This document shows, piece after piece, positions 3,568 to 28,343 of a stretch of DNA of 45,069 nt. The notes under the pieces were generated by a model, which was not told the DNA's origin, did not search any database, and saw nothing but the letters and a program-made list of their open reading frames with translations. The stretch's first letter is position 1, and every line of letters starts with the position of its first letter. The position numbers and the translations under genes were made by a program. Origin of the DNA: a phage; sequence record PZ334583.1; one strand, given 5' to 3'.

Positions 3568-3590
3568 ATTTACTGGACACTATAGAAGAG
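3568..3590 (+). promoter_or_regulatory. Phage RNAP promoter, putative +1 G at 3585
   Basis: gatttactggacactatagaagag, perfect consensus, upstream of tailspike 1. Confidence 0.85.
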
Positions 3591-11553: not shown

Positions 11554-14181
11554 ATGCAAGACCTACACGCTATTCAACTTCAACTTGAAGAAGAAATGTT
11601 TAACGGCGGTATCCGTCGCTTTGAAGCGGACCAACAACGCCAGATTGCATCCGGTAATGAATCAGACACGGCATGGAATCGCCGCTTATTATCCGAGTTA
11701 ATCGCGCCAATGGCTGAAGGTATTCAGGCTTATAAGGAAGAGTACGAAGGCAAGCGCGGTCGTGCACCACGTGCATTGGCTTTCATTAACTGCGTAGAAA
11801 ATGAAGTGGCAGCGTATATCACGATGAAGATCGTAATGGATATGCTTAACACTGATGTAACCTTGCAAGCTATCGCTATGAATGTAGCTGACCGCATCGA
11901 AGACCAAGTGCGCTTCAGTAAACTAGAAGGCCATGCAGCTAAATATTTTGAGAAGGTCAAGAAGTCACTTAAGGCAAGTAAGACTAAATCATATCGCCAT
12001 GCGCACAACGTAGCGGTCGTGGCTGAGAAGTCAGTAGCTGACCGTGACGCTGATTTCTCTCGCTGGGAAGCGTGGCCTAAAGATACCTTGCTACAAATTG
12101 GTATGACCTTGCTAGAAATACTGGAAAATAGTGTATTCTTCAACAGGCAGCCTGTTTTCATCCGCACCTTGCGTACTAATGGCGGCAAACACGGTGTTTA
12201 CTACTTACAGACTAGTGAACACGTTGGCGAGTGGATAACCGCCTTCAAAGAGCACGTAGCGCAACTAAGCCCTGCATATGCACCTTGCGTTATTCCTCCG
12301 CGTCCGTGGGTTTCACCTTTCAACGGTGGGTTTCATACTGAGAAAGTAGCAAGTCGTATCCGCCTTGTTAAAGGCAACCGTGAGCACGTCCGTAAGTTAA
12401 CTAAAAAGCAAATGCCAGCGGTCTATAAGGCTGTTAACGCCTTACAAGCTACTAAGTGGCAGGTTAACAAGGAAGTATTGCAGGTAGTAGAAGATGTTAT
12501 TCGTCTAGACCTCGGTTATGGTGTACCTTCCTTTAAGCCGCTCATTGACCGCGAGAACAAACCAGCTAACCCTGTTCCTCTTGAGTTCCAACACCTGCGA
12601 GGCCGTGAACTGAAAGAAATGCTTACGCCGGAACAATGGCAAGCCTTTATCAACTGGAAAGGTGAATGTACTAAGCTGTACACCGCTGAAACTAAGCGCG
12701 GAAGCAAATCGGCGGCAACCGTTCGCATGGTTGGTCAGGCCCGTAAATATAGCCAGTTCGACGCAATCTACTTCGTGTATGCACTGGACAGCCGCAGCCG
12801 CGTCTACGCGCAATCTAGCACACTCTCACCGCAATCAAATGACTTGGGCAAGGCATTGCTCCGTTTTACCGAAGGGCAGCGTCTTGATAGCGCTGAGGCG
12901 CTTAAGTGGTTTTTGGTGAACGGGGCGAATAACTGGGGTTGGGATAAGAAAACTTTTGACGTGCGCACCGCTAACGTGCTGGATAGCGAATTTCAAGACA
13001 TGTGCCGCGACATTGCAGCCGATCCGCTGACCTTCACTCAATGGGTAAATGCTGATTCCCCTTACGGCTTCCTTGCATGGTGCTTTGAATATGCGCGTTA
13101 TCTGGATGCACTGGATGAAGGCACGCAAGACCAATTCATGACGCACCTACCCGTCCATCAAGACGGTAGTTGCTCTGGTATCCAGCACTATAGCGCGATG
13201 TTACGCGATGAAGTAGGTGCGAAAGCAGTAAACCTTAAGCCTTCTGACTCCCCTCAAGATATTTATGGCGCGGTTGCGCAGGTTGTTATCCAGAAGAATT
13301 ACGCCTACATGAATGCAGACGATGCAGAGACTTTCACATCTGGAAGCGTCACACTTACAGGTGCAGAACTGCGTAGCATGGCTAGTGCGTGGGATATGAT
13401 AGGAATCACTCGCGGCCTGACCAAAAAGCCCGTAATGACACTACCTTATGGCAGCACACGTCTAACCTGCCGTGAGTCAGTGATTGATTATATCGTTGAT
13501 TTAGAAGAAAAAGAGGCCCAACGGGCTATTGCGGAAGGGCGTACCGCCAATCCTGTACACCCTTTTGATAATGACCGTAAGGACAGCCTGACACCTAGCG
13601 CAGCTTATAACTATATGACAGCTTTAATCTGGCCTTCTATTTCGGAAGTGGTTAAAGCTCCTATAGTGGCAATGAAAATGATTCGTCAGCTTGCACGTTT
13701 CGCAGCTAAAAGGAATGAAGGCTTAGAGTACACCTTGCCTACTGGCTTCATCTTGCAACAAAAGATAATGGCGACAGATATGCTCCGCGTATCTACTTGC
13801 TTGATGGGCGAAATCAAGATGAGTCTACAGATTGAAACGGACGTAGTGGATGAAACGGCTATGATGGGCGCTGCTGCCCCTAACTTTGTGCACGGTCATG
13901 ATGCCAGTCACCTTATCTTAACGGTCTGCGACCTTGTTGATAAAGGGATTACATCTATCGCAGTAATTCATGATTCTTTTGGCACTCATGCAGGTCGTAC
14001 CGCAGACCTACGTGATAGTCTAAGGGCAGAAATGGTGAAGATGTATCAAGGCCATAACGCTCTGCAAAGCCTGTTAGATGAGCATGAAGAACGCTGGTTA
14101 GTAGACACCGGAATCCAAGTGCCAGAGCAAGGAGAGTTTGACCTTAACGAAATCTTAGTATCTGACTATTGCTTCGCATAA
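11554..14181 (+). CDS. Single-subunit DNA-dependent RNA polymerase (SP6/T7 family)
   Basis: 875 aa; [26 protein letters not shown]... and the catalytic C-terminus ...HDSFGTHA... recognised as SP6-type RNAP; RBS AGGAG. Confidence 0.97.
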
Positions 14182-14637: not shown

Positions 14638-16626
14638 ATGGCTATTATTCAGAATGTACCGTGTCCTGCCTGTCAAAAGAATGGACATGATATTACTGGC
14701 AACCATCTTATGATATTTGAGGATGGCGCTGGTTACTGTAACCGTGGTCACTTCCATGATAACGGTAAACCTTATTACCACAAGCCGGAAGGTGGCATCG
14801 AGATAACCGAGTTACCTATTACTGGCAATATCAAATATACACCTTCTCAATTCAAAGAAATGGAGAAGGAAGGGAAGATAAGCGACCCTAAATTACGTGC
14901 CATCGCACTAGGTGGTATGCGTATGAAAGACCGTTGGGAGGTCATGAATGAGCAAGAAAGGGCAGACCAAGAAGCAGAGTGGAAGCTTGATGTTGAATGG
15001 TTCCTCACGCTTAAGCGTAAGAACCTTGTTTCCCGACACATTCGCGGCGACATTTGCGCATTGTATGATGTACGTGTCGGACACGATGAAGAGGGTAGAG
15101 TCTCGCGGCATTACTATCCACGCTTCGAGAAAGGTGAGCTAGTAGGAGCTAAGTGTCGCACATTACCTAAAGACTTTAAGTTTGGTCATTTAGGTAAACT
15201 CTTTGGTATGCAAGATCTTTTCGGGATGAATACTTTGTCTCACGTGTTAGACAAGGGAAGACGAAAGGATTGCTTGCTTATTGTGGGTGGGGAACTGGAT
15301 GCGCTAGCAGCGCAGCAGATGCTCCTTGATTCTGCCAAAGGTACTAAGTGGGAAGGACAACCATATCATGTGTGGTCTGTCAACAAGGGCGAGTCTTGCC
15401 TTGAAGAGATAGTGCAGAACCGTGAGCATATCGCCCAATTCAAGAAGATTATATGGGGTTTTGATGGAGATGAGGTAGGGCAGAAGCAGAATCAGCAAGC
15501 GGCTCGCCTGTTTCCTGGCAAATCCTATATCCTTGAATACCCCTCTGGTTGCAAAGATGCTAACAAGGCATTGATGGCTGGCAAGGCTAGAGAGTTTGTA
15601 GATGCATGGTTTAATGCCAAGTCATCTGATGAAGTCTTTGGTAGCCAGATTAAATCTATCGCATCTCAAAGGGATAAGCTCAAGGCTGCACGTCCAGAGC
15701 AAGGACTATCATGGCCTTGGCCTAAGCTGAACAAGGTAACGCTAGGTATTCGTAAGAACCAACTTATCATTGTAGGCGCAGGCTCTGGTGTAGGTAAGAC
15801 TGAGTTCCTTCGTGAAGTAGTTAAGCACCTCATTGAAGAACACGGTGAATCTGTAGGCATCATTTCTACAGAAGACCCGATGGTCAAGGTGTCCCGTGCT
15901 TTTATCGGCAAGTGGATTGATAAGCGTATTGAGTTACCGCCAACCAACGACCCGAAAGAAGATGGATACCGTGAGGTGTTCGACTACACCGAGGAAGAAG
16001 CTAACGCCGCCATTGATTATGTAGCCGATACAGGGAAGCTGTTTGTAGCTGACCTAGAAGGTGACTACTCGATGGAGAAGGTAGAGCAGACCTGCCTTGA
16101 GTTTGAGGCTATGGGTATTTCCAATATCATCATTGATAACTTAACGGGGATTAAATTAGATGAGCGTGCTTTTGGTGGGAAGGTTGGTGCACTTGATGAA
16201 TGCGTCAAGCGGATTGGTACTATCAAAGACCGACACCCGGTTACTATATTCCTTGTATCACACCTTACACGTCCTCCGGCAAACCGGACCCAACACGAAG
16301 AAGGTGGCGAAGTTATCCTTTCTGACTTCCGAGGCTCAGGCGCTATCGGATTCTGGGCATCTTACGCCTTGGGGATTGAGCGTAATACAAGAGCTGAAAC
16401 GCTTGACGAAAGGACTACCACGTACATCTCATGTGTCAAAGACCGCGACCAAGGAATATTTTCCGGTACTCGTATAATGCTTAAAGGTGATATTGCTACT
16501 GGTCGCTTACGTGAACCAGAGCAAAGATCTCGACCGTTTGATACTGGTGCTCCAAAAGAACAAACTGTACCAGAAGAAGTGATTGATAAAGGAGGTTTTA
16601 TTGCTGACGAAGTTGAAGAGTTTTGA
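14638..16626 (+). CDS. DNA primase/helicase (T7 gp4-like) with acidic C-terminal tail ending in Phe
   Basis: N-terminal Cys4 zinc ribbon (CPACQ...CNRGH), Walker A GAGSGVGKTEF, C-terminus ...FIADEVEEF; RBS GGGAG. Confidence 0.95.
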   Translation: MAIIQNVPCPACQKNGHDITGNHLMIFEDGAGYCNRGHFHDNGKPYYHKPEGGIEITELPITGNIKYTPSQFKEMEKEGKISDPKLRAIALGGMRMKDRWEVMNEQERADQEAEWKLDVEWFLTLKRKNLVSRHIRGDICALYDVRVGHDEEGRVSRHYYPRFEKGELVGAKCRTLPKDFKFGHLGKLFGMQDLFGMNTLSHVLDKGRRKDCLLIVGGELDALAAQQMLLDSAKGTKWEGQPYHVWSVNKGESCLEEIVQNREHIAQFKKIIWGFDGDEVGQKQNQQAARLFPGKSYILEYPSGCKDANKALMAGKAREFVDAWFNAKSSDEVFGSQIKSIASQRDKLKAARPEQGLSWPWPKLNKVTLGIRKNQLIIVGAGSGVGKTEFLREVVKHLIEEHGESVGIISTEDPMVKVSRAFIGKWIDKRIELPPTNDPKEDGYREVFDYTEEEANAAIDYVADTGKLFVADLEGDYSMEKVEQTCLEFEAMGISNIIIDNLTGIKLDERAFGGKVGALDECVKRIGTIKDRHPVTIFLVSHLTRPPANRTQHEEGGEVILSDFRGSGAIGFWASYALGIERNTRAETLDERTTTYISCVKDRDQGIFSGTRIMLKGDIATGRLREPEQRSRPFDTGAPKEQTVPEEVIDKGGFIADEVEEF

Positions 16627-17089
16627 GGCAGCAGGCTATACCATCAAGGAAGATGGTACTATCCTTAACCCTAAAGGTGTAATACGCAAGCCCACGCCTT
16701 TAGGAAAGAAAGTAAAGTATTTATATGTAACTTGGAGACATCAAGGTCGAACAGTGACAGAACTTGTACACCGACTGGTTGCTTGTAAGTACATACCCAA
16801 CCCACAGGGTTTACCAGAAGTTCATCATAAAGACTTTAATCCTCTTAATTGTCATAAGGATAATCTTGAATGGACAGATGGGAAAACCAATTGTGAGTAT
16901 AGCTATTCACGAGTAGAGACTGCACTTGCACGAAAGGCTACTTTGCTGTCACCTGATGGAATTAAACATGATGTGTTTAATGTTCGTAAGTTCTGCCGTA
17001 AACATAGCCTCAATCCACCTAGCATATTTGAAGTGCTCAGTGGTAAGCGTAAATCACACAAAGGTTGGGCTATTTACCGGACACTATAG
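16601..17089 (+). CDS. HNH homing-type endonuclease, paralog 1
   Basis: motifs VHHKDFNPLNCHKDNLEW (HNH), paralogous to 44626..45069; strong RBS AAGGAGG 16589..16595; start codon uncertain (TTG 16601 or 16613; ORF-track frame begins at 16583); 3' end contains promoter 17072. Confidence 0.75.
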   Translation: MLTKLKSFEAAGYTIKEDGTILNPKGVIRKPTPLGKKVKYLYVTWRHQGRTVTELVHRLVACKYIPNPQGLPEVHHKDFNPLNCHKDNLEWTDGKTNCEYSYSRVETALARKATLLSPDGIKHDVFNVRKFCRKHSLNPPSIFEVLSGKRKSHKGWAIYRTL

Positions 17090-17094
17090 AAGAG
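17072..17094 (+). promoter_or_regulatory. Phage RNAP promoter embedded in the 3' end of the HNH gene
   Basis: atttaccggacactatagaagag. Confidence 0.8.
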
Positions 17095-17145
17095 ACTAAC
17101 TTCGATGAAGAAAGTGAGTTCTGATTAGTGTATTTATCAGGGCTT

Positions 17146-17161
17146 GTCTCACATGTGAGAC
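17146..17161. repeat. Palindrome GTCTCACATGTGAGAC, copy 3 (extended stem cttgtctcacatgtgagacagg)
   Basis: exact sequence read; 30-bp context nearly identical to the copy at 39815. Confidence 0.9.
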
Positions 17162-17200
17162 AGGCTCTTATTAAGTACATTAAATAACTGGAGATTGATT

Positions 17201-17884
17201 ATGTATAAATTAGTATTGAATGTAGGTGATTATGTTCGTAACATCAATGAAGCCTCACGTCGTTATCGTTGCCGTGGTGTAGTGGATCGTGTAAGTGAGA
17301 ACATGTATCATGTAGAATATGAGGATGGTATTAAGGCTTCTTACCACAAGAAAACAGCACATAAATATCTTGAAAAGGTTGTAGAGATAAACAATCAATG
17401 TAAGTGCATACATGATGAGCTTTGCGATAAGTGTGCTCGCCAGATGCATAAGATGCTATTATACCCTTTTCGCTATTGTGCTGGCCCTCAAACACTAGCA
17501 GAGTACATGGCAGAAAAGAAAACCACACTCAAGAAAGAGCGTCGCAATGTAATCACTGGTAAGACTCAAAGTGAGATGATTAAGCAATGTGGCACTGCAC
17601 TAGGTGTTACGCAGTTTAACACTCGTGCTCTTGGTAAATCCACAGGACAAGCTATGGTAAAGATCGGCGAAGCCATGATGCATCCAAATGTACCTGTACG
17701 AATCAGGGATGTTGACCATGCAATCACAGAACACGGTACGCAACGACGTGTAATTAATAAGCATTTTGCCGACACTATAGAAGGTATTATTCGTAAGCAA
17801 GGGTTGAAAGGTCTTCATATCTTGAATGATGAAGAGTTACTGTACCTCCCTATTGTTACTGAAGAAACCTACGTGAATATCTAA
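17201..17884 (+). CDS. Hypothetical protein (227 aa), Cys-containing N-terminal region
   Basis: ATG 17201 with RBS GGAG; contains internal promoter-like sequence at 17762. Confidence 0.7.
   Translation: MYKLVLNVGDYVRNINEASRRYRCRGVVDRVSENMYHVEYEDGIKASYHKKTAHKYLEKVVEINNQCKCIHDELCDKCARQMHKMLLYPFRYCAGPQTLAEYMAEKKTTLKKERRNVITGKTQSEMIKQCGTALGVTQFNTRALGKSTGQAMVKIGEAMMHPNVPVRIRDVDHAITEHGTQRRVINKHFADTIEGIIRKQGLKGLHILNDEELLYLPIVTEETYVNI
17762..17784 (+). promoter_or_regulatory. Intragenic variant phage promoter-like sequence
   Basis: attttgccgacactatagaaggt; core GACACTATAGAAG intact, upstream specificity region diverged. Confidence 0.4.
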
Positions 17885-17894
17885 GGAGTTAATC

Positions 17895-18113
17895 ATGACT
17901 AAAGTATTAATTTATATGCGTGGACCTCATAAATGCTATGCAGTTGTAGCACCAAATGGTGTTAAGCCCTATAGTACTTCAAAAGGATTGGCATTAATAG
18001 GTGCTAGTAGTAGTGCAAGTTTCCAAATGGAACTTTTTGGTCATTGGAATGAAAGGCAATTCCGTGAGGATTTTAAAGTCATTGGCAGCTTCATGGTGAA
18101 ACATGCAGAATAA
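17895..18113 (+). CDS. Hypothetical protein (72 aa)
   Basis: RBS AAGGAG; ORF track. Confidence 0.55.
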   Translation: MTKVLIYMRGPHKCYAVVAPNGVKPYSTSKGLALIGASSSASFQMELFGHWNERQFREDFKVIGSFMVKHAE

Positions 18114-18126
18114 ACATAGTCTTAAA

Positions 18127-18279
18127 ATGTTCGATGGTCATGAAGACCTGCAAGCCAAGATTACTAACCAAGCCTTCCTGTTCGCACAGTTAACTATGGC
18201 TGAGGCCAAGAAGAATAGTCTCACTCGTGAACAGGTTATCAAGGAAAGTGAAGTGAAACGTAAGATTCGCAGTCGATAA
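18127..18279 (+). CDS. Small ORF (50 aa; or 58 aa from ATG 18103)
   Basis: MFDGHEDLQAKITNQAFLFAQLTMAEAKKNSLTREQVIKESEVKRKIRSR; followed by the terminator hairpin at 18286. Confidence 0.3.
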   Translation: MFDGHEDLQAKITNQAFLFAQLTMAEAKKNSLTREQVIKESEVKRKIRSR

Positions 18280-18285
18280 GTCAAG

Positions 18286-18314
18286 GGTTGTCTCACGTGT
18301 GAGACAGCCTTTTA
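18286..18314 (+). terminator. Terminator built on palindrome copy 4 (variant centre CACGTGTG)
   Basis: ggttgtctcacgtgtgagacagcc followed by ttttat; palindrome core 18290..18305. Confidence 0.6.
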
Positions 18315-18336
18315 TCATGTTGATTGGAGGTGCATT

Positions 18337-18444
18337 ATGCCACGTGATTATGATTCTGATTGGGACTACTATGACTCAATGAATCCAAAACCAGAACGTT
18401 CAGATGATTACTACGAAACAGAGGCAATGTATGAAAACTATTAA
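18337..18444 (+). CDS. Small acidic ORF (35 aa)
   Basis: ATG 18337 with RBS GGAGG; MPRDYDSDWDYYDSMNPKPERSDDYYETEAMYENY. Confidence 0.35.
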   Translation: MPRDYDSDWDYYDSMNPKPERSDDYYETEAMYENY

Positions 18445-18649
18445 AGTCAGTAAGGTTTGCTCTTGCGGTAAAGGTTATCGCAGTCGTATTGATGGTAAGT
18501 GTGGACATTGTAGGTCTAAGAAAGAGGCTGCTTTGTTTGACAAGTACCACAATGAATTAGCCTATAACTACCCACATCTAACACCTAATTCTTTATTAGG
18601 GCTTGGTTATAGGGCTAAATACTTTGGAGCAATCTATGAAATCAATTGA
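18431..18649 (+). CDS. Small Cys-rich (zinc-ribbon-like) protein (72 aa)
   Basis: ATG 18431; CSCGKGYRSRIDGKCGHC; overlaps the DNAP start by 14 nt. Confidence 0.45.
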   Translation: MKTIKVSKVCSCGKGYRSRIDGKCGHCRSKKEAALFDKYHNELAYNYPHLTPNSLLGLGYRAKYFGAIYEIN

Positions 18650-21182
18650 TTGGAAGAAGGAGGCAGAAGGTCGTATCCTCGTGATGGATGCGGAAGCTAA
18701 AGGACTCCTTGACGCTATCCGATATGGACACCGTGAAGATGTGCATATCATTTGCTGCATGGATTTGCTTACTACCGAGGAGTTTCTCTTCTTTGACCCG
18801 TATGAGATGCGTGACCCTGAAGCAAGAGAACGCCTGAAGGAATGGGAAGGTCATCAAGATGGAACCTTGGTTGACGGTGTTAACTTCCTGAAGCATTGTG
18901 AAGCTATTGTGTCACAGAACTTCCTAGGGTATGACGGACTTCTCTTTGAGAAAGCATTCCCTGATATTTGGAAAGGCTTTAACTATACCGAGAAGCGCGG
19001 TAAGGGCAGACTTCGTGCTGACCTGTGTCCGGTGCGAGTCATGGATACGCTGGTGATGAGTCGCCTGTTAAACCCCGATAGACGCCTTCCTCCGCAAGCA
19101 TATGCCAAAGGTATGGGTAACGTCGCCCCTCACTCAATTGAGGCGCACGGCATCCGTATAGGTCGCTATAAACCGGAGAACGAGGACTGGTCTAAACTAA
19201 CTGACCACATGGTTCACCGTGTACGTGAGGACGTGGCGATTGGTCGTGACCTATTCCTCTGGCTATTTAACGGAGAATGGACGGAGCACAAACGCCGTGG
19301 CGTGAATAAACGCACTGGCCTAGGTATTGAGACAGCCTTCCACATGGAGTCCATTGTGGCGCTGGAGATGAGCCGTCAGGCCGAGCGCGGGTTCCGTCTG
19401 GACATCGACAAGGCTTTGGCCCGATGCGAAGAATTGGACGCTAAGATTGATGAGACAGTCGCAGCGTTCCGCCCTCACATGCCTATGCGTATCAAGTCTA
19501 AACCTTTTAAACCGGAAGAAAAGAATGAAGTATGCCAACGCGCAAATGAGTATGGAGCTAGCAACAATATACCTACTGTCCTTGACCCCTCACACTTTCT
19601 TCATGCCGAGAGACGAGGAGATCGCAAGACAGTATGGAGTGTCACTACTAAGTCTGGTGATTGGTCGGCTAGTGTCAAGAAAGATTTTCCTCACCTTAGA
19701 GGAAACCGTAATGACACGCCAAGCATCAAGTGGATTGGCGCTTACTCGCCTGTTACTTTCGAAGAGATCCCCTTGGGTAACAGGGATACAGTTAAGCAAG
19801 TGCTCTATGAGTATGGATGGAAAGGTGTTGAATTTAACGATACCGAGCAAGCTCATCTCGATGAGCACGGAGTGTTACCAAAACCTTGGAGTGGTAAGAT
19901 AAATGAAAAGTCCCTCACTTTATGGCAAGAAAGAGCCGCACGTGAAGGTAAAACAGTCCCTGATTGGTGCTTGGGTATCGCTGCATGGTACATACTCGTA
20001 TCCCGTCGTGGTCAGATACTCAACCGTGGTGACGTTGAAGCCTTCAACGAGAAGGGAACGTGGCCCTCGCAGGCTGGTGTACGAAAGTGTCGCGGCCTTG
20101 TACCTGTAGCATTCAACAAGGAGCTAGGAATCAATGCGCAGCAATACTACGAGAGGTACGGATGTTGGCCTACGTCTGACAAAGATGACGGAGAGTGGCG
20201 TGTTCCAGCTGTTGCTATTAGCATTGGCACTTCTACGTTCCGTATGCGTCATCGTAACGTGGTTAATATTCCTGCCCGTGGCTTGTATCCTTTACGTGAT
20301 TTATTCATAGCAGGGAAAGGCAAGCTAATCCTTGGTTGTGACGGTGCAGGTCTTGAACTGCGTGTCCTGTCTCACTTCATGAATGACCCTGAGTACCAAG
20401 AGATTGTACTGCACGGTGATATTCATACGCATAACCAGATGAAGGCTGGTCTTCCTAAGCGTGATATGGCGAAGACGTTTATATACGCCTTCCTCTATGG
20501 CTCTGGTATAGCCAACCTTGCAGCAGTATGTGGTGTTACTGAGGAAGAAATGAAGGAAGTTGTGGCAAGATTCGAGATTGAACTGCCGTCTCTTGCACGT
20601 CTTCGTGAGAATGTTATCGCACAAGGTAACAAGTTTGGCTACCTGCAAGCACCTGATGGGCATTGGGGTCGCATCCGCATGTCTGGTGGTGAACTTAAAG
20701 AGCACACGATGCTTAACGTATTACTCCAGATGACTGGCTCTTTGTGTATGAAATATGCATTAGTCAAGGCATTTGCAGTAATGCGCAAGGAAGGTGTAGC
20801 CTTGGATGCTATGGGAAATCCTTGTGGTGTGGCTAACGTGCATGATGAAATCCAGATGGAAGTTCCTGAAGAGGAGGTCTTGTATCTTAACTACGACCTA
20901 CCTTTCACCTTAGATGGGTTCGAAACAGAGAAGGCTGCCGTGAAGGCAGTGTTCGATGCAGAGGAGAAACGTGTTCATGTGGATTCTGAAGGACGTATGT
21001 GGTCTGCTGCAAACCTCGTCAGTGTTGATGCTGATGCTGGTGTATTGCATTGCCAGCGCCGTTATCACCGTGCAGGTCATATCATTGCCGACGCCATGAC
21101 TTGGGCAGGGCAGTATCTGAAGATGCGTTGCCCGATGGCAGGCGAGTATAAGATTGGCGCAAGCTGGAAGGAAACACACTGA
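18636..21182 (+). CDS. DNA polymerase, family A (T7 gp5-like) with 3'-5' exonuclease domain
   Basis: 848 aa from ATG 18636 (RBS GGAG); exo motif ILVMDAEAKGL; polymerase motifs incl. RDMAKTFIYAFLYGSG and HDEIQ. Confidence 0.95.
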   Translation: MKSIDWKKEAEGRILVMDAEAKGLLDAIRYGHREDVHIICCMDLLTTEEFLFFDPYEMRDPEARERLKEWEGHQDGTLVDGVNFLKHCEAIVSQNFLGYDGLLFEKAFPDIWKGFNYTEKRGKGRLRADLCPVRVMDTLVMSRLLNPDRRLPPQAYAKGMGNVAPHSIEAHGIRIGRYKPENEDWSKLTDHMVHRVREDVAIGRDLFLWLFNGEWTEHKRRGVNKRTGLGIETAFHMESIVALEMSRQAERGFRLDIDKALARCEELDAKIDETVAAFRPHMPMRIKSKPFKPEEKNEVCQRANEYGASNNIPTVLDPSHFLHAERRGDRKTVWSVTTKSGDWSASVKKDFPHLRGNRNDTPSIKWIGAYSPVTFEEIPLGNRDTVKQVLYEYGWKGVEFNDTEQAHLDEHGVLPKPWSGKINEKSLTLWQERAAREGKTVPDWCLGIAAWYILVSRRGQILNRGDVEAFNEKGTWPSQAGVRKCRGLVPVAFNKELGINAQQYYERYGCWPTSDKDDGEWRVPAVAISIGTSTFRMRHRNVVNIPARGLYPLRDLFIAGKGKLILGCDGAGLELRVLSHFMNDPEYQEIVLHGDIHTHNQMKAGLPKRDMAKTFIYAFLYGSGIANLAAVCGVTEEEMKEVVARFEIELPSLARLRENVIAQGNKFGYLQAPDGHWGRIRMSGGELKEHTMLNVLLQMTGSLCMKYALVKAFAVMRKEGVALDAMGNPCGVANVHDEIQMEVPEEEVLYLNYDLPFTLDGFETEKAAVKAVFDAEEKRVHVDSEGRMWSAANLVSVDADAGVLHCQRRYHRAGHIIADAMTWAGQYLKMRCPMAGEYKIGASWKETH

Positions 21183-21298
21183 TGGATAGGCTTGACATTG
21201 TTTGCCTATTCTTCACTTTCTTTCTTACACTCCTTATGCTTGCTTGTTATGGGAGTATGAGACTAGATATACCTGATGAAGAAGAGGGTTACGACTAA
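21182..21298 (+). CDS. Tiny hydrophobic protein (38 aa)
   Basis: ATG overlapping the DNAP stop (ATGA); MDRLDIVCLFFTFFLTLLMLACYGSMRLDIPDEEEGYD. Confidence 0.35.
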   Translation: MDRLDIVCLFFTFFLTLLMLACYGSMRLDIPDEEEGYD

Positions 21299-21396
21299 TG
21301 CAAACTGCTTTTATTATTCTTGGTATCATATTATTTATGGTAGTACTCTGGGCCTTCTCTGGCATTGACCCGGATTGTGATGGTAACTACGACTGA
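21298..21396 (+). CDS. Tiny hydrophobic protein (32 aa)
   Basis: TAATG overlap; MQTAFIILGIILFMVVLWAFSGIDPDCDGNYD; similar architecture to the preceding ORF (TM helix then acidic ...YD end). Confidence 0.3.
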   Translation: MQTAFIILGIILFMVVLWAFSGIDPDCDGNYD

Positions 21397-21406
21397 GTTA
21401 TACTCA

Positions 21407-21430
21407 AGGTCACTTACGAGTGGCCTTTAT
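21407..21430 (+). terminator. Weak terminator-like hairpin
   Basis: aggtcac-ttacga-gtggcct then ttat. Confidence 0.35.
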
Positions 21431-21464
21431 GGATAACTTATCCCTACTTATTTTGTCTAACATG

Positions 21465-21487
21465 ATTTACTGGACACTATAGAAGGA
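21465..21487 (+). promoter_or_regulatory. Phage RNAP promoter followed by an AT-rich TAGGT-repeat leader
   Basis: atttactggacactatagaagga; downstream ctaggtttataaggtagtataggtaattaag. Confidence 0.85.
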
Positions 21488-21551
21488 AAGCCTAGACAAT
21501 CTAGGTTTATAAGGTAGTATAGGTAATTAAGTAAATATAGGAGATATAAAC

Positions 21552-21929
21552 ATGTCTATGGTAACTACTCTGGTATTTGTAGCTCAATACTTTCGTGGTC
21601 TGGCTAATAAGTTCAAGTCCAAGGCTATCAAAGCTATTGAGTCTCGCATCGAGGCAGTACAGGCAGAGCAGGTTAAAGTTGAAGAACATCGTAGTTCTAA
21701 AATGATTGACTGCCATAACCGCTACTATGCATCTCGTGATGACCTTAATGCACGCCAAGTCAAAGAGGTTGAAGAGATGCTGGCACGTCACCAGCAAGAG
21801 CGCGACAGTCTGAAAGCTGAATTTGAAGAGAACAAGGCATCCATCGCCCTTGTACATCAAGCCGCATCTGACAGCCTGAAGAAAGAGATTGTTATGCTGG
21901 AAATTGAGTTAGACAACCTGACCAAATAA
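21552..21929 (+). CDS. Hypothetical coiled-coil protein (125 aa)
   Basis: RBS AGGAG; heptad-like charged helical sequence. Confidence 0.65.
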   Translation: MSMVTTLVFVAQYFRGLANKFKSKAIKAIESRIEAVQAEQVKVEEHRSSKMIDCHNRYYASRDDLNARQVKEVEEMLARHQQERDSLKAEFEENKASIALVHQAASDSLKKEIVMLEIELDNLTK

Positions 21930-21950
21930 TTACTGGACACTATAGAACAA
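21928..21950 (+). promoter_or_regulatory. Phage RNAP promoter
   Basis: aattactggacactatagaacaa; overlaps the stop of the upstream gene. Confidence 0.8.
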
Positions 21951-22091
21951 TAGGTCGGCTTAGTTCGGCCTATGATTGTAAAGTGTTGAACCTTATTGTG
22001 CATCTTGCACAACCCGATGCTATATCGGGCTTTCTAGTGAGTACATGCTTGTGCTCAGTACAAAGCTAACTGACAATAGGAGACTAAATAA

Positions 22092-22898
22092 ATGGCACGT
22101 GGTGATTTTGATTTTGGTGCTCAGGTTACTAAGGCTGAAGGTAAAGTATTTAAGAACCCTGAAGTTGGTGATCATGAAGCAGTAATCTCTGGCATCATTC
22201 ATGTTGGTTCCTTCCAAGATATTTTTAAGAAAGGTAATACCACTGAGGTTAAGAAGCCAGCAAACTTTGTTCTTGTTAAGATTATCCTGATGGGTGACGA
22301 CGACAAGAATGAAGATGATTCTCGCATGGAACAGTGGATGGCTGTGCCTCTGAAGTCTGGTGACAAGGCAACCTTGACTAAGTTCCTGAATGCAGTTGAC
22401 CCTAAAGAGCTGCTTGGTGGTTTCGATGACTTCATCGGTGAATGCCTGACTGCAACTATGGTTGGCTCTGGCGACAAGAATGATGATGGTACTTTCAAGT
22501 ATGTTAACTGGAAAGGCTTTGGCGGTATGCCTGATAAGTTGAAGAAGCTTGTACTGGCTCAGGTAGAAGAGGAAGGTCTGTCTATGACAGGTCATATCAC
22601 CTTCGACAAGCTGACCAAAGAAATCCTTGATGACATCCCAGCTAACTTGGTGCGTCAATACTTCCTTAATGAAACACCTCGTGGTAAGAACCTGTCTGTT
22701 GCTGGTTCTCACGTAGAAGCAATCATTAAAGCTGCTCGTGAAGAAGACCCAGAGTGGAAGAAAGCCAAGAAGAAAGATGACGAGGATGCTACTCCAGCTA
22801 ATCGTAAATCTATGGATACTGGTGAGTCTGTTCCACAGGAAGTACCTGAAGCAGAAGATACTCCTGCACCGGAGATGGATGAGGACGCGGAATATTAA
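22092..22898 (+). CDS. Putative single-stranded DNA-binding protein (gp2.5-like) with acidic C-terminal tail
   Basis: 268 aa; Lys-rich body, acidic C-terminus PEMDEDAEY; codon usage of a highly expressed gene; function inferred from composition and position only. Confidence 0.4.
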   Translation: MARGDFDFGAQVTKAEGKVFKNPEVGDHEAVISGIIHVGSFQDIFKKGNTTEVKKPANFVLVKIILMGDDDKNEDDSRMEQWMAVPLKSGDKATLTKFLNAVDPKELLGGFDDFIGECLTATMVGSGDKNDDGTFKYVNWKGFGGMPDKLKKLVLAQVEEEGLSMTGHITFDKLTKEILDDIPANLVRQYFLNETPRGKNLSVAGSHVEAIIKAAREEDPEWKKAKKKDDEDATPANRKSMDTGESVPQEVPEAEDTPAPEMDEDAEY

Positions 22899-22907
22899 GG
22901 AGAAAGG

Positions 22908-23126
22908 ATGAAAGTACAAATCGTAACCCTGCACTGCAAGAAAGGTATCACAACGCTCGGAGGTAGCACTTTCCACTCTTTCTCCGAAGGGGAGATTTAT
23001 GCTGACCTGCACTACATCTGGCGCGACGGACAGCACGTGGTGAACTACAGCGACCCAGCTACGGGGAAACGCCACGGCGTATCGCTTCCTGCGCATGACA
23101 TTGCTCAGGTGAACACAGTTTTATAA
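22908..23126 (+). CDS. Hypothetical protein (72 aa)
   Basis: RBS AAGGAGAAAGG; ORF track. Confidence 0.6.
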   Translation: MKVQIVTLHCKKGITTLGGSTFHSFSEGEIYADLHYIWRDGQHVVNYSDPATGKRHGVSLPAHDIAQVNTVL

Positions 23127-23127
23127 A

Positions 23128-23143
23128 GTCTCACATGTGAGAC
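23128..23143. repeat. Palindrome GTCTCACATGTGAGAC, copy 5, 15 nt upstream of promoter 23159
   Basis: exact sequence read. Confidence 0.9.
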
Positions 23144-23158
23144 AAATCGGTGTCCGGT

Positions 23159-23181
23159 ATTTACTGGACACTATAGAAGAG
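23159..23181 (+). promoter_or_regulatory. Phage RNAP promoter
   Basis: atttactggacactatagaagag, perfect consensus. Confidence 0.85.
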
Positions 23182-23230
23182 AAGAATTTTAATCGGCGAT
23201 AATGCCACAACTAACAAAGGAGAATTTAAT

Positions 23231-23608
23231 ATGTTCAAGATTGAAACTATCGTAAACCGTGTTGTTAAAGGTGCTGCTCTGGTATCCGTTGAGTCTTTCA
23301 TTATCGTCGATGAAGCTGATCAACTGGTAGCTGGTACTAAGGCTTACGATACCCGTGAAGAAGCTCAGGCTAAGATTGACAGCATGGGTAACTTCGCTGC
23401 TGGTCTGGAGTTCGCTCGCGCTTGCTTCCCTGAGCAGGCTGACAAAGCTCAGATTGGTAAGGCCAATATCGTAGCTGAGTATCTGGATTGGATTGCTGCT
23501 GGTAAGCCGGTGAAAGAAGTTAAGGCTGCTGAAGAAGCTGAAGCTCCGGCAGTAGAAGAAGTAGCTGCACCGGTAGATGCTCCGGTAAGCGAAGAAGAAG
23601 AGTTTTAA
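23231..23608 (+). CDS. Highly expressed small protein (125 aa) with acidic C-terminal tail ending ...SEEEEF
   Basis: RBS AAGGAG; Ala-rich; the C-terminal acidic tail with terminal Phe mirrors that of the primase-helicase. Confidence 0.75.
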   Translation: MFKIETIVNRVVKGAALVSVESFIIVDEADQLVAGTKAYDTREEAQAKIDSMGNFAAGLEFARACFPEQADKAQIGKANIVAEYLDWIAAGKPVKEVKAAEEAEAPAVEEVAAPVDAPVSEEEEF

Positions 23609-23620
23609 TTGATGCCCTGT

Positions 23621-23646
23621 CTGCCTTAGTGTAGGCAGGGTCTTTT
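23621..23646 (+). terminator. Terminator-like hairpin
   Basis: ctgcct-tagtgt-aggcag followed by ggtctttt. Confidence 0.45.
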
Positions 23647-23672
23647 GCGTAATAGTTATTGGAGAATGAATT

Positions 23673-23969
23673 ATGCCGACTATTGAATCTCGTTTACGCG
23701 CTGACTATAATAGATACTTTAGCCGCTTACATAGGGATTATATGACACACGTTACAGTATGGTTAGATGATGGGATATTCTTAGTGTATGAGTATTTACA
23801 TGATACGGGTGACCGCTATGACCCTAGTTCCCTCCAAGTAGCAAAGTCTATTGTAGAGCGCATCTTGAAGGAGTGGCCTACATGCGACCAAACTTCGACT
23901 TCGGAGCTACAGTATCGGAAGACAATAATCTCATCCTGTGGCCAACTGAAGGTAATAGAATCGCTTTAA
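23673..23969 (+). CDS. Hypothetical protein (98 aa)
   Basis: RBS GGAG; 3' end overlaps the exonuclease gene by about 88 nt in another frame, so the true extent is uncertain. Confidence 0.5.
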   Translation: MPTIESRLRADYNRYFSRLHRDYMTHVTVWLDDGIFLVYEYLHDTGDRYDPSSLQVAKSIVERILKEWPTCDQTSTSELQYRKTIISSCGQLKVIESL

Positions 23970-26910: not shown

Positions 26911-27084
26911 ATGGAAGGTAAACTGTATAGAGGGTACTTCGGTAACTTATATAAAGTAAGCTCTCGCGGTTTTGTATTGACCTCTGATGATGAAGGTGCA
27001 ATGTGGCACCTAAGTGCATATGGTTCTAACTTAGCACACTTTAAAGAGGCAATAGTCAAAGGTGTGATGAAGGAGGTGAAATGA
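26911..27084 (+). CDS. Small hypothetical protein (57 aa)
   Basis: ATG 26911 with GAGGA upstream; in-frame part of track ORF 26893..27084. Confidence 0.4.
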   Translation: MEGKLYRGYFGNLYKVSSRGFVLTSDDEGAMWHLSAYGSNLAHFKEAIVKGVMKEVK

Positions 27085-28028
27085 ACATCTTCCAATTCCT
27101 AGGTCTTCCAGAAGACCACCGCAATCATCCATTCATGCTGGTGAAGCATCGCGGTGAAGTTCCTGAGAAGAAACTTACTTTTCCATGTTATGCACAGGTG
27201 AAACGAGATGGAATATTCAGTGCTGTTGTGGTGCGCAAGGATGGTGCTGTTGCCATCTTTGGTCGTACTGGTAAGAAGCTCGCAAATGTTGAATCCTTGG
27301 AAAAGACATTTAGTGTATTTCCTGTCGGGTTGTATCTTGGTGAGTTGCAATCTATGGCTGTTGATGTTTATCTTGAAGCTCTGTCAGGAGTGGTAAACCC
27401 TAATCGTACAGAGCCACTTGACTTCATAGGCCAGCAGATTAAAGACAACCTGTATATCGACTTCTTCGATATGTTAACTATTAAGGCATTCCATGATGGA
27501 TTCACTGATGTTTCTTATCTCAAACGTTACGATGCTTTACATCGCCGCATCGGCGCTCATCTTAGCGGGTACAACGCTATCCTTCCTATTACTCCTTGCC
27601 ATAATGAGCGAGAAGTTGAAGCGTTTGCGCAAGAGCAGATAGACGCAGGCCGAGAAGGTGCGGTATTTAAACTTGACGTGGAGTACGAAAGTGGGCACAA
27701 GGGCTATCGTCAAACGAAGATCGTTCGTATGGTATCTTACGACCTAACCTGTATTGGGTGGGAGGAAGGAAAAGGTAAGTATAAAGGTAAAGTAGCTAAC
27801 CTCATTTTCAAATGGAAAGGAGGCAAGTCTGTTAAGGCTATGCTGGGTCGTGGCTGGTCACATGAGGATGCAGCCCAAATGTATCACGATATTAAGCACG
27901 GTGGCGAACTGAACGTCATTGGGAAGATCTTCGCTGTCAAGGCGTTGCAGGAATCTAGCAAGGGAGTCCTGAGACTTCCCAAGGTTTCTGAATTACGCCA
28001 CGATAAGGAGGTTCCTGATGTTTATTGA
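27081..28028 (+). CDS. ATP-dependent DNA ligase
   Basis: 315 aa; adenylation motif AQVKRDGIF (KxDG); RBS GGAGG. Confidence 0.85.
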   Translation: MNIFQFLGLPEDHRNHPFMLVKHRGEVPEKKLTFPCYAQVKRDGIFSAVVVRKDGAVAIFGRTGKKLANVESLEKTFSVFPVGLYLGELQSMAVDVYLEALSGVVNPNRTEPLDFIGQQIKDNLYIDFFDMLTIKAFHDGFTDVSYLKRYDALHRRIGAHLSGYNAILPITPCHNEREVEAFAQEQIDAGREGAVFKLDVEYESGHKGYRQTKIVRMVSYDLTCIGWEEGKGKYKGKVANLIFKWKGGKSVKAMLGRGWSHEDAAQMYHDIKHGGELNVIGKIFAVKALQESSKGVLRLPKVSELRHDKEVPDVY

Positions 28029-28143
28029 TTTGAACGAAAAACAGCTTGAATTGTTAATAGAAGCCATTGAGCAATACTATTACATGTGGGGCTATCAGTC
28101 AGAAGAATTAGACTCCTTATATTCACAACTAAAAGGAGGTTAA
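28018..28143 (+). CDS. Small ORF (41 aa)
   Basis: ATG 28018 with RBS AAGGAGG; MFIDLNEKQLELLIEAIEQYYYMWGYQSEELDSLYSQLKGG. Confidence 0.4.
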   Translation: MFIDLNEKQLELLIEAIEQYYYMWGYQSEELDSLYSQLKGG

Positions 28144-28145
28144 TT

Positions 28146-28343
28146 ATGTCTTTTGATTCTATGAAGGCAACTCGTGCAGTTGAGGTAGCAGAAGCTATCT
28201 TTGAAACTTTATCCTGTGGCATGGAAGTGCCATATACTTTACTTGCTGATGCAGAAGAACTTGGTCTTTCTGTAGAAGCTATCCAAGAGAAGGTTGACGA
28301 ATTATATGGTACAGACGAAGAAGAAACCGACGATTTCATTTGA
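28146..28343 (+). CDS. Small acidic protein (65 aa)
   Basis: ATG 28146 with RBS AAAGGAGG; ends ...EEETDDFI. Confidence 0.5.
   Translation: MSFDSMKATRAVEVAEAIFETLSCGMEVPYTLLADAEELGLSVEAIQEKVDELYGTDEEETDDFI

Follow-up and report, generated by a model that had tools for sequence, protein, structure and literature searches.

Acidic tails with aromatic ends on three proteins of an SP6/K1E-type phage replication module

The phage sequence PZ334583.1 (45,069 nucleotides, referred to here as the window) contains, between positions 14,638 and 23,608, the replication module of a phage of the SP6/K1E type. Three of the proteins encoded there, a primase-helicase, a candidate single-stranded DNA (ssDNA)-binding protein (SSB) of 268 amino acids (aa), and a small protein of 125 aa, terminate in a run of acidic residues followed by a final Phe or Tyr. 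As judged from the distribution of such motifs in the sequence, the shared tails are not due to chance. The explanation favored here, with a confidence somewhat above even, is that in modules of this type the helicase, the SSB, and the small protein share a docking motif, which would consist of a flexible, acidic tail with Phe or Tyr as its last residue, and that this motif is most likely read by one receptor, for which the small protein would be a third client.

Three tails and their conservation

The three ends had been pointed out in a previous reading of this DNA made from the letters alone (the sequence-only reading), and translation of the open reading frames (ORFs) bears out each of them. 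The helicase gene (14638..16626) ends with ...KGGFIADEVEEF, i.e., ...GGFIADEVEEF; the ORF of the 268-aa protein (22092..22898) ends with ...APEMDEDAEY, and that of the 125-aa protein (23231..23608) ends with ...APVSEEEEF. Only these three of the 52 plus-strand ORFs specify at least four Asp or Glu residues within the seven residues that precede a terminal Phe, Tyr, or Trp. The same acidic-aromatic motif occurs internally at 11 of 12,431 positions in 42 genes, and among the C-termini of these 42 genes, 0.037 cases would be expected by chance compared with the three that are observed (Poisson P = 8e-6).

The first of the tail-bearing proteins, which is 662 aa long, is, by its sequence, an ordinary homologue of gp4, the primase-helicase of phage T7, with a gp4-like tail. 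A Toprim primase domain (Pfam Toprim_2, E 3e-4) is fused to a DnaB/RecA-type helicase domain (Pfam DnaB_C, E 1.8e-14); phrog_239, DNA primase/helicase, is matched at E 8e-185, and T7 gp4 is found by phmmer at E 3e-25. The acidic tail, EEVIDKGGFIADEVEEF (16573..16623), with its ...EEF tip, belongs to the variable sequence after a conserved SFDTG motif. Among homologues, the ~25 residues that follow this motif vary, and the end takes the form [D/E]-x-[D/E]-E-F. In the window, the last 44 nucleotides of the helicase gene (16583-16626) are overlapped by a 168-aa ORF for a putative HNH homing endonuclease (16583..17089; matches to Pfam HNH_3 and to an I-HmuI NUMOD-like domain, both weak). This ORF is missing in most close relatives, whose coverage of the query is only 93%. 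Coinciding with the overlapping ORF, the helicase departs from its close relatives over the final ~20 residues, yet the EEF tip is retained. In one relative, ULINTec6, a different HNH gene splits the helicase gene itself.

Conservation was examined in 30 loci from IMG/VR that were found by means of the SSB alignment, 6 metagenome contigs with distant homologues of the small protein, and 12 annotated genomes, the last of which reach Colwellvirinae and unclassified Autographiviridae and include phages of Vibrio, Pseudomonas, Ralstonia, Marinomonas, Aeromonas, Edwardsiella, and Erwinia. Throughout this sample, the genes follow one another in the order helicase, polymerase, SSB, small protein, exonuclease. 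Furthermore, in genomes long enough to carry all three genes, acidic and aromatic ends are present on all three proteins, barring a few exceptions. Within the SSB family, a Tyr or Phe follows acidic residues in 28 of 28 homologues, down to 33% identity; this aromatic residue is the last one in 26 and is followed by one Ser in 2, and the ~40 residues before the tip are variable in the 28-sequence alignment. Most homologues of the small protein, down to 31% identity, have an EExF tip, and the linker is hypervariable in both sequence and length. For the helicase, the end is an acidic residue plus F or Y in 25 of the 27 loci that carry the 3' end of the gene. The exceptions are SP6 (...QEFNG) and a metagenomic contig, L033 (...DEFT), in which the aromatic residue is followed by two residues or one, as it also is in the small protein of L033 (...EEFE).

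The SP6 helicase (L012, 3257-5242) ends in full with ...NTQEFNG, and its closest relatives stop after ...NTQEF. Either the two extra residues are a genuine variant, one that would bury the Phe carboxylate rule, or they reflect a difference in the sequencing or in the stop codon.

The tips of the three proteins also resemble one another within a genome. All three end in Tyr in Aeromonas phage MJG (helicase ...EGASY, SSB ...EEATY, small protein ...EDAAY) and in loci L027-29 (...EESEY, ...EGAEY, and ...EAEEY, in the same order). In Ralstonia phage Reminis, both the helicase and the SSB end with ...ADEEF and the small protein with ...TEGAF, and the corresponding tips in Vibrio phages are ...QEF, ...EQEF, and ...EEF. 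Within the K1E/SP6 clade, ...EEF is common to the small protein and the helicase, and the SSB has ...AEY. In L033, F is the next-to-last residue of both the helicase and the small protein, and the SSB ends with ...DDVPF. A permutation test over 17 lineages, in which the identity of the last three or four residues within genomes was compared with that in shuffled sets, gave a higher identity within than between genomes for the helicase and SSB tips (p = 2e-4 to 4e-4) and for the helicase and small-protein tips (p = 2e-3 to 2e-2), with p = 0.015-0.07 for the SSB and small-protein tips; this test ignores phylogeny and its lineages were hand-picked, and the result is consequently supportive rather than conclusive.

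The SSB and small-protein families are found in 216 and 213 phage records, respectively, with nearly identical genus counts. By this distribution, the gene for the small protein behaves like part of the module's core set and not like a variable accessory. Because the tips are conserved over drifting linkers, occur broadly, and co-vary within genomes, the tails are taken to be functional motifs.

A fourth acidic end is encoded by a small ORF farther along in the window (28086-28343, ...YGTDEEETDDFI), whose true start is probably an internal ATG near 28146. It lies downstream of a 315-aa ORF (27081-28028) that is probably a ligase, judging from the annotation of a relative. The acidic run is kept in ~30 relatives; the end residues vary (...DDFI, ...DYQY, ...ETDD, ...DSE), and the strict tip rule is not followed.

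Two candidates for the SSB

In the sequence-only reading, it was unclear which of two proteins, the 268-aa or the 125-aa, is the true SSB, and prediction of the folds was suggested as a check. This check gives an answer: an OB fold is predicted for the 268-aa protein and none for the 125-aa protein.

For the 268-aa protein (SP6 gp18, K1E gp16, phrog_862), 47 homologues were gathered and 28, reaching down to 33% identity, were aligned. The AlphaFold2 model obtained with this alignment is a confident one (pLDDT 79, pTM 0.72) and consists of a beta barrel (residues 26-144), a helical subdomain (148-218), and disorder from approximately residue 229 to the end. As predicted, the barrel is a five-stranded OB barrel that resembles those of known ssDNA binders. 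The tail, which comprises residues 223-268 (22758..22895), carries a net charge of -8 and ends with EMDEDAEY; pLDDT is below 50 over residues 229-253. On the strength of this model, the 268-aa protein is regarded as the putative SSB of the phage. A promoter for the phage RNA polymerase (RNAP), ATTACTGGACACTATAGAACAA (21929..21950), with three mismatches to the window consensus, is located upstream of the gene.

The modeled barrel is divergent, being nearest to PrgE/DUF669-like folds and not to the gp2.5 family of T7. PrgE of plasmid pCF10 (PDB 8s4s) is the closest solved structure; however, it has only 15% identity to the SSB candidate, which is about twice the size of PrgE and carries, in addition, a helical subdomain and a long tail. 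A Foldseek comparison with predicted viral structures yielded 73 proteins at E <= 1e-3, of which the named ones are uncharacterized, mostly from phages, and in some cases annotated as DUF669 (matched in BFVD at E 2e-5 to 1e-4). DUF669 and the SSB of phage N4 have been proposed to be highly diverged OB-fold SSBs with acidic tails (Kazlauskas et al., PMC4889955). Yet none of the 38 members of the 268-aa family that were scanned matches the Pfam model of DUF669, and hhalign of the family profile against N4 SSB was not significant. Nor was hhalign of the 28-sequence profile against T7 gp2.5 significant (probability 0.08%), and gp2.5 was not found when PDB sequences were searched with the profile. 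In the structure comparison, gp2.5 (PDB 1je5) was not the closest OB fold. Given the non-significant profile comparisons with gp2.5 and N4 SSB and the lack of a match to DUF669, the 268-aa protein is classed here as a candidate OB-fold SSB that forms a sequence family by itself. Within the broad grouping of OB-fold proteins with acidic tails, it is a new and hitherto unannotated member, and its sequence falls into no named family.

Neither the 268-aa nor the 125-aa protein has a usable match to any Pfam, NCBIfam, or PDB sequence. A near-match to NGO0469, "replication initiation" (E 0.0015), fell far below its cutoff and was disregarded. The PHROGs families of the two proteins, phrog_862 and phrog_4429, are both labeled "unknown function", and no gene is called SSB in one PHROG-annotated Molineuxvirinae genome. 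Among the tblastn matches listed for the 268-aa protein (40 of 216 records), all are called "hypothetical protein", are given a bare gp number (K1E gp16, SP6 gp18), or are unannotated, and no published SSB assignment for SP6-like phages was found in the literature. The SP6/K1E/K1-5 group, together with many marine and plant-pathogen relatives (>200 sequenced genomes), had no annotated SSB before; a candidate is now assigned to it, whose divergent OB fold is unnamed by Pfam, NCBIfam, and PHROGs.

At the other end of the SSB family, the N-terminal motif (F6, G9, A10, G17; FDFGA) is invariant, even though residues 1-18 (22092-22145) are disordered in the AlphaFold prediction. In PrgE, a flexible N-terminal arm touches the neighboring monomer on DNA; by analogy, the motif in the SSB family may be a cooperativity arm. 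The SSB homologue of L033 (9177-9929 of a Logan SRR22936148 contig) ends with ...PNDDVPF, which is nearly the bacterial SSB tip DDDIPF, and its tail may have switched to reading host SSB partners.

The 125-aa protein (SP6 gp20, phrog_4429), as modeled, is not an SSB. It would instead be a mildly acidic small alpha/beta domain that carries the tip on a flexible linker of ~30 residues. Homologues were collected by a near-neighbor search and by an exhaustive search of cluster representatives (24 clusters, to ~31% identity). With 26 sequences, AlphaFold2 (pLDDT 79) predicts a beta-hairpin (residues 3-26) and three helices (42-51, 55-65, and 71-89), with no confident structure from residue ~95 onward; neither an OB barrel nor another known ssDNA-binding fold is seen in the predicted structure, and the model has no convincing match in the PDB. 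The linker (residues 96-125; 23516..23605) is disordered (pLDDT < 50), rich in A, E, P, and V, and has a net charge of -10, with SEEEEF as its tip. Because the net charge of the globular domain (residues 1-95) is only -3, the idea that the protein is a DNA mimic was set aside. A lead from DUF1508/UPF0339 (YegP-like) for the N-terminal part was also abandoned, as the hints were too weak and the function of that family is itself not known. The 213 phage records of the 125-aa family are always annotated "hypothetical", the T7 region from gene 1.6 to gene 5.5 contains no match for the family, and no literature on a gp20-like protein was found; the protein is without a known counterpart.

The 125-aa protein had also been called highly expressed. 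The sequence signals support this claim. The gene has an exact-consensus phage RNAP promoter, TTTACTGGACACTATAGAAGAG (23160..23181), which has no mismatches and is identical to the site at 3569. Nine such sites are present in the window, compared with none expected by chance, and we take the core of their consensus to match the classical SP6 promoter. The ribosome-binding site is AAAGGAG, and a terminator-like hairpin with a T-run lies directly after the gene (23614..23648; an 11-base-pair stem with 6 GC pairs, then CTTTTG; dG -18.3 kcal/mol, z -2.9). The fraction of E. coli-preferred codons is 0.746, rank 1 among 42 genes, compared with 0.674 for the major capsid gene (rank 3); the SSB, DNA polymerase, and helicase genes rank 5, 24, and 26, respectively. 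From these signals, it is a reasonable inference that the 125-aa protein is abundant.

A proposed shared receptor and the possible role of the 125-aa protein

In phage T7, gp2.5 and gp4 each have an acidic tail with a final Phe, these tails bind to basic sites of the DNA polymerase, and removal of the terminal Phe from gp2.5 abolishes its interaction with the polymerase without affecting its binding of ssDNA (PMC12339929; bioRxiv 10.64898/2026.02.22.705581). The present module is like that of T7 in that the helicase is a gp4 homologue, the SSB candidate combines an OB domain with a disordered acidic tail and a terminal aromatic residue, and the helicase and SSB tips resemble each other within several lineages, as do ...DTDF and ...DGDF in T7. 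In addition, the polymerase belongs to family A, and its thumb contains an insertion where the T7 enzyme has the thioredoxin-binding domain, a domain whose loops in the T7 polymerase reportedly have a role in tail binding, according to work of the Richardson laboratory. For a T7 gp2.5 that lacks the terminal Phe, suppressors have reportedly been found in the polymerase. In contrast to T7, the SSB candidate has no detectable sequence relation or top-ranked structural relation to gp2.5, possesses the extra helical subdomain, and usually ends in Tyr. Furthermore, a third tip carrier, which does not look like a DNA-binding protein, is present here, whereas T7 has only two tail-bearing replisome proteins.

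The polymerase gene (18603..21182) encodes a protein of ~849-859 aa, the start codon not being fixed, that matches Pfam DNA_pol_A at E 5e-23 and is 35% identical to T7 gp5 across the palm and fingers. The thumb insertion (around residues 330-380), with its basic stretches, falls at the position of the T7 thioredoxin-binding domain, although it is alignable only approximately and in part (HAERRGDRK...SVKKDFPHLRGNRN vs. HPRTGKPLPK...KKPKNKAQREGRE in T7). By analogy with T7, this insertion is the best candidate for a tail receptor.

In the model favored here, then, the three tails would compete for or share one phage-encoded receptor, most probably the DNA polymerase through its basic thumb insertion. 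The small protein would be the third client of this hub, serving either as an adaptor or regulator that its tail tethers to the replisome or as a factor that titrates the docking site. A single receptor that reads all three tips would explain why the tips drift together. The apparent abundance of the 125-aa protein would point to a stoichiometric role (adaptor, reservoir, regulator, or docking-site chaperone) rather than a catalytic one, and the earlier suggestion that it is a small polymerase-binding factor is plausible by this analogy. The observed part of this model comprises the tails, with their conservation and co-variation, the predicted folds, and the expression signals; that the 268-aa protein binds ssDNA, which protein is the receptor, and how the small protein would act after docking are inferred.

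Several observations weigh against this model. First, the front basic patch of the T7 polymerase (K587/K589/R590/R591) is absent. When 17 polymerases were aligned with MAFFT, the patch, as part of the T7 sequence ...QQVKWKRRW, fell within a T7-only insertion; 16 of 16 SP6-like polymerases lack this insertion and instead carry nearby a conserved DG[HR]WGRIR motif and, after it, a residue that is mostly basic. Consequently, the receptor site is not transferable from T7 by homology. Second, the aromatic tip is missing in three single metagenomic contigs, from the SSB of L041 (...DEEV) and from the small proteins of L036 (...VEVA) and L043 (...SSTD), and the co-variation test is limited in the ways given above. 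Third, the small protein is seemingly far more expressed than either the helicase or the polymerase, a finding that is awkward for a simple competitor at a site on the polymerase and would better fit an abundant partner such as the SSB. The T7-like docking code put forward in the sequence-only reading is partly supported by the sequences: the tails are real, under selection, conserved, and co-varying, but the front patch known from T7 is not conserved in this polymerase.

Given the abundance of the small protein, it has been considered that the 125-aa protein is instead a stoichiometric partner or regulator of the SSB, a serious alternative that is nonetheless rated as rather unlikely. In this case, its tail would lie in the ssDNA cleft of the OB fold, or its globular domain would sit on the SSB, and it would keep a soluble pool of SSB or tune the cooperativity of binding. 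Acidic tails are said, by Marintcheva and Richardson, to compete with ssDNA for the cleft of gp2.5. In every locus examined, the two genes either are direct neighbors or have only one to three small ORFs between them; they co-occur in ~213-216 phage records with the same genus distribution, hold ranks 1 and 5 in codon optimization, and have a promoter each; in addition, the 125-aa protein seems far more abundant than the polymerase, and the SSB seems equally abundant. However, the tip of the small protein co-varies with that of the helicase at least as well as with that of the SSB, and in the K1E/SP6 clade it is the helicase with which the small protein shares ...EEF, not the SSB with its ...AEY.

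A role directed at the host is judged to be quite improbable. Here the tail would mimic the bacterial SSB tip (DDDIPF) and titrate exonuclease I, RecQ, PriA, and the chi subunit, thereby protecting or favoring phage DNA. The C-terminus of bacterial SSB (SSB-Ct, ...DDDIPF), a hub for a dozen or more partners, is indeed similar in design, having an acidic disordered linker and a C-terminal Phe, both the carboxylate and the ring of which are recognized by pockets in the partners. Moreover, the 125-aa protein looks abundant and bears its terminal Phe and acidic tail on a long flexible linker, as in bacterial SSB; the partners of host SSB are conserved among the proteobacteria that these phages infect; and the ...NDDVPF end of the distant SSB homologue of L033 shows how close the two codes lie. 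Unlike SSB-Ct, however, the present tips are of the form E-E-x-F/Y without an Ile-Pro-Phe signature or, more broadly, a hydrophobic-Pro-Phe one; Pro at position -2 is found in none of the small-protein tips examined, the tip in the window being S-E-E-E-E-F. The motif is also carried here by a protein that is not itself an SSB, on a 95-residue non-OB domain. Finally, the small-protein tips track the tips of the phage's own helicase and SSB, changing from F to Y with them in L027-29 and MJG, which argues for a phage-encoded receptor, and the gene belongs to the syntenic core of the replication module and is no variable accessory.

It is very unlikely that the role of SSB, or of a second SSB, falls to the 125-aa protein and that the 268-aa protein has another function. 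The acidic Phe-ended tail, the apparent high expression, and the place in the replication module would suit such an assignment, and some phage SSBs are small and non-OB (PMC4889955); the predicted structures described above assign the OB fold to the 268-aa protein. Least credible of all is a coincidence of composition, in which the tails would be low-complexity acidic ends without specific function. Acidic disordered tails are indeed common, and the fourth small ORF (28086..28343) has an acidic end whose last residue is not conserved, but three tails are observed where 0.037 are expected, the tip is kept among relatives of 31-33% identity while the linkers diverge, and the tips co-vary within genomes.

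For the docking model, in which three clients share one receptor, the mechanism is a familiar one; what is new is the extra client, the different fold family of the SSB, and the different receptor surface. The docking code would then be older and wider than T7, having been retained despite a changed SSB fold family and a changed docking patch on the polymerase. A more specific version, which is put forward only tentatively, is that the SP6 gp20-type protein is a hitherto unrecognized, dedicated replisome subunit in a large branch of Autographiviridae, a phage-encoded adaptor or processivity-type factor whose EExF tip would occupy the basic site in the thumb insertion that would also read the helicase and SSB tails, so that the polymerase would be a hub with three clients. 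If this is true, the protein possibly replaces the host thioredoxin used by T7. Docking of the small protein on either the polymerase or the SSB would provide a new handle on partner exchange in small replisomes.

Source genome and neighboring genes

A megablast search with positions 14638-23608 matched 139 phage records, the best being Escherichia phage EC120 (97.5% identity). Many of the matches bear the name Vectrevirus, and the taxonomy of one relative is Autographiviridae, Molineuxvirinae, Vectrevirus. The matches, together with this classification, identify the window as the genome of a podophage of the K1E/K1-5/SP6 type (Vectrevirus), a genus widely used for therapeutic phages. All genes are carried by the plus strand; their order is RNA polymerase (11554..14181), the primase-helicase, the DNA polymerase, several small proteins, a 5'-3' exonuclease, and endonuclease VII.

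The block 21466-23648 is made up of unusually codon-optimized genes with phage promoters ahead of them (21466, 21929, and 23160) and contains a coiled-coil protein, the SSB candidate, a 72-aa ORF, and the small tail-bearing protein. The coiled-coil protein (21552-21929), which is also 125 aa long, has a hydrophobic N-terminus; its PHROGs label, "polysaccharide chain length determinant", probably reflects coiled-coil similarity only. The 72-aa ORF (22908..23126; phrog_5791, unknown function) lies between the SSB and small-protein genes. No counterpart was recovered at the same position in distant relatives, where the intervening ORFs vary in number and size. Beyond the small-protein gene, a 98-aa ORF (23673-23969; phrog_10319, labeled "DNA repair protein") runs into the exonuclease ORF, whose listed start is the GTG at 23873. 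In relatives, the exonuclease gene is annotated as ~9 nucleotides shorter (1029 vs. 1038), and the true start is probably slightly downstream.

Two errors of annotation were noticed among the relatives. Vibrio phage Vc1 (L051, KJ502657.1) is filed under Drexlerviridae despite a full SP6-like gene order of the Autographiviridae and a single-subunit RNA polymerase, and the primase-helicase of Ralstonia phage Reminis (Rem33; L046, MN478376.1) is labeled "DNA-directed RNA polymerase".

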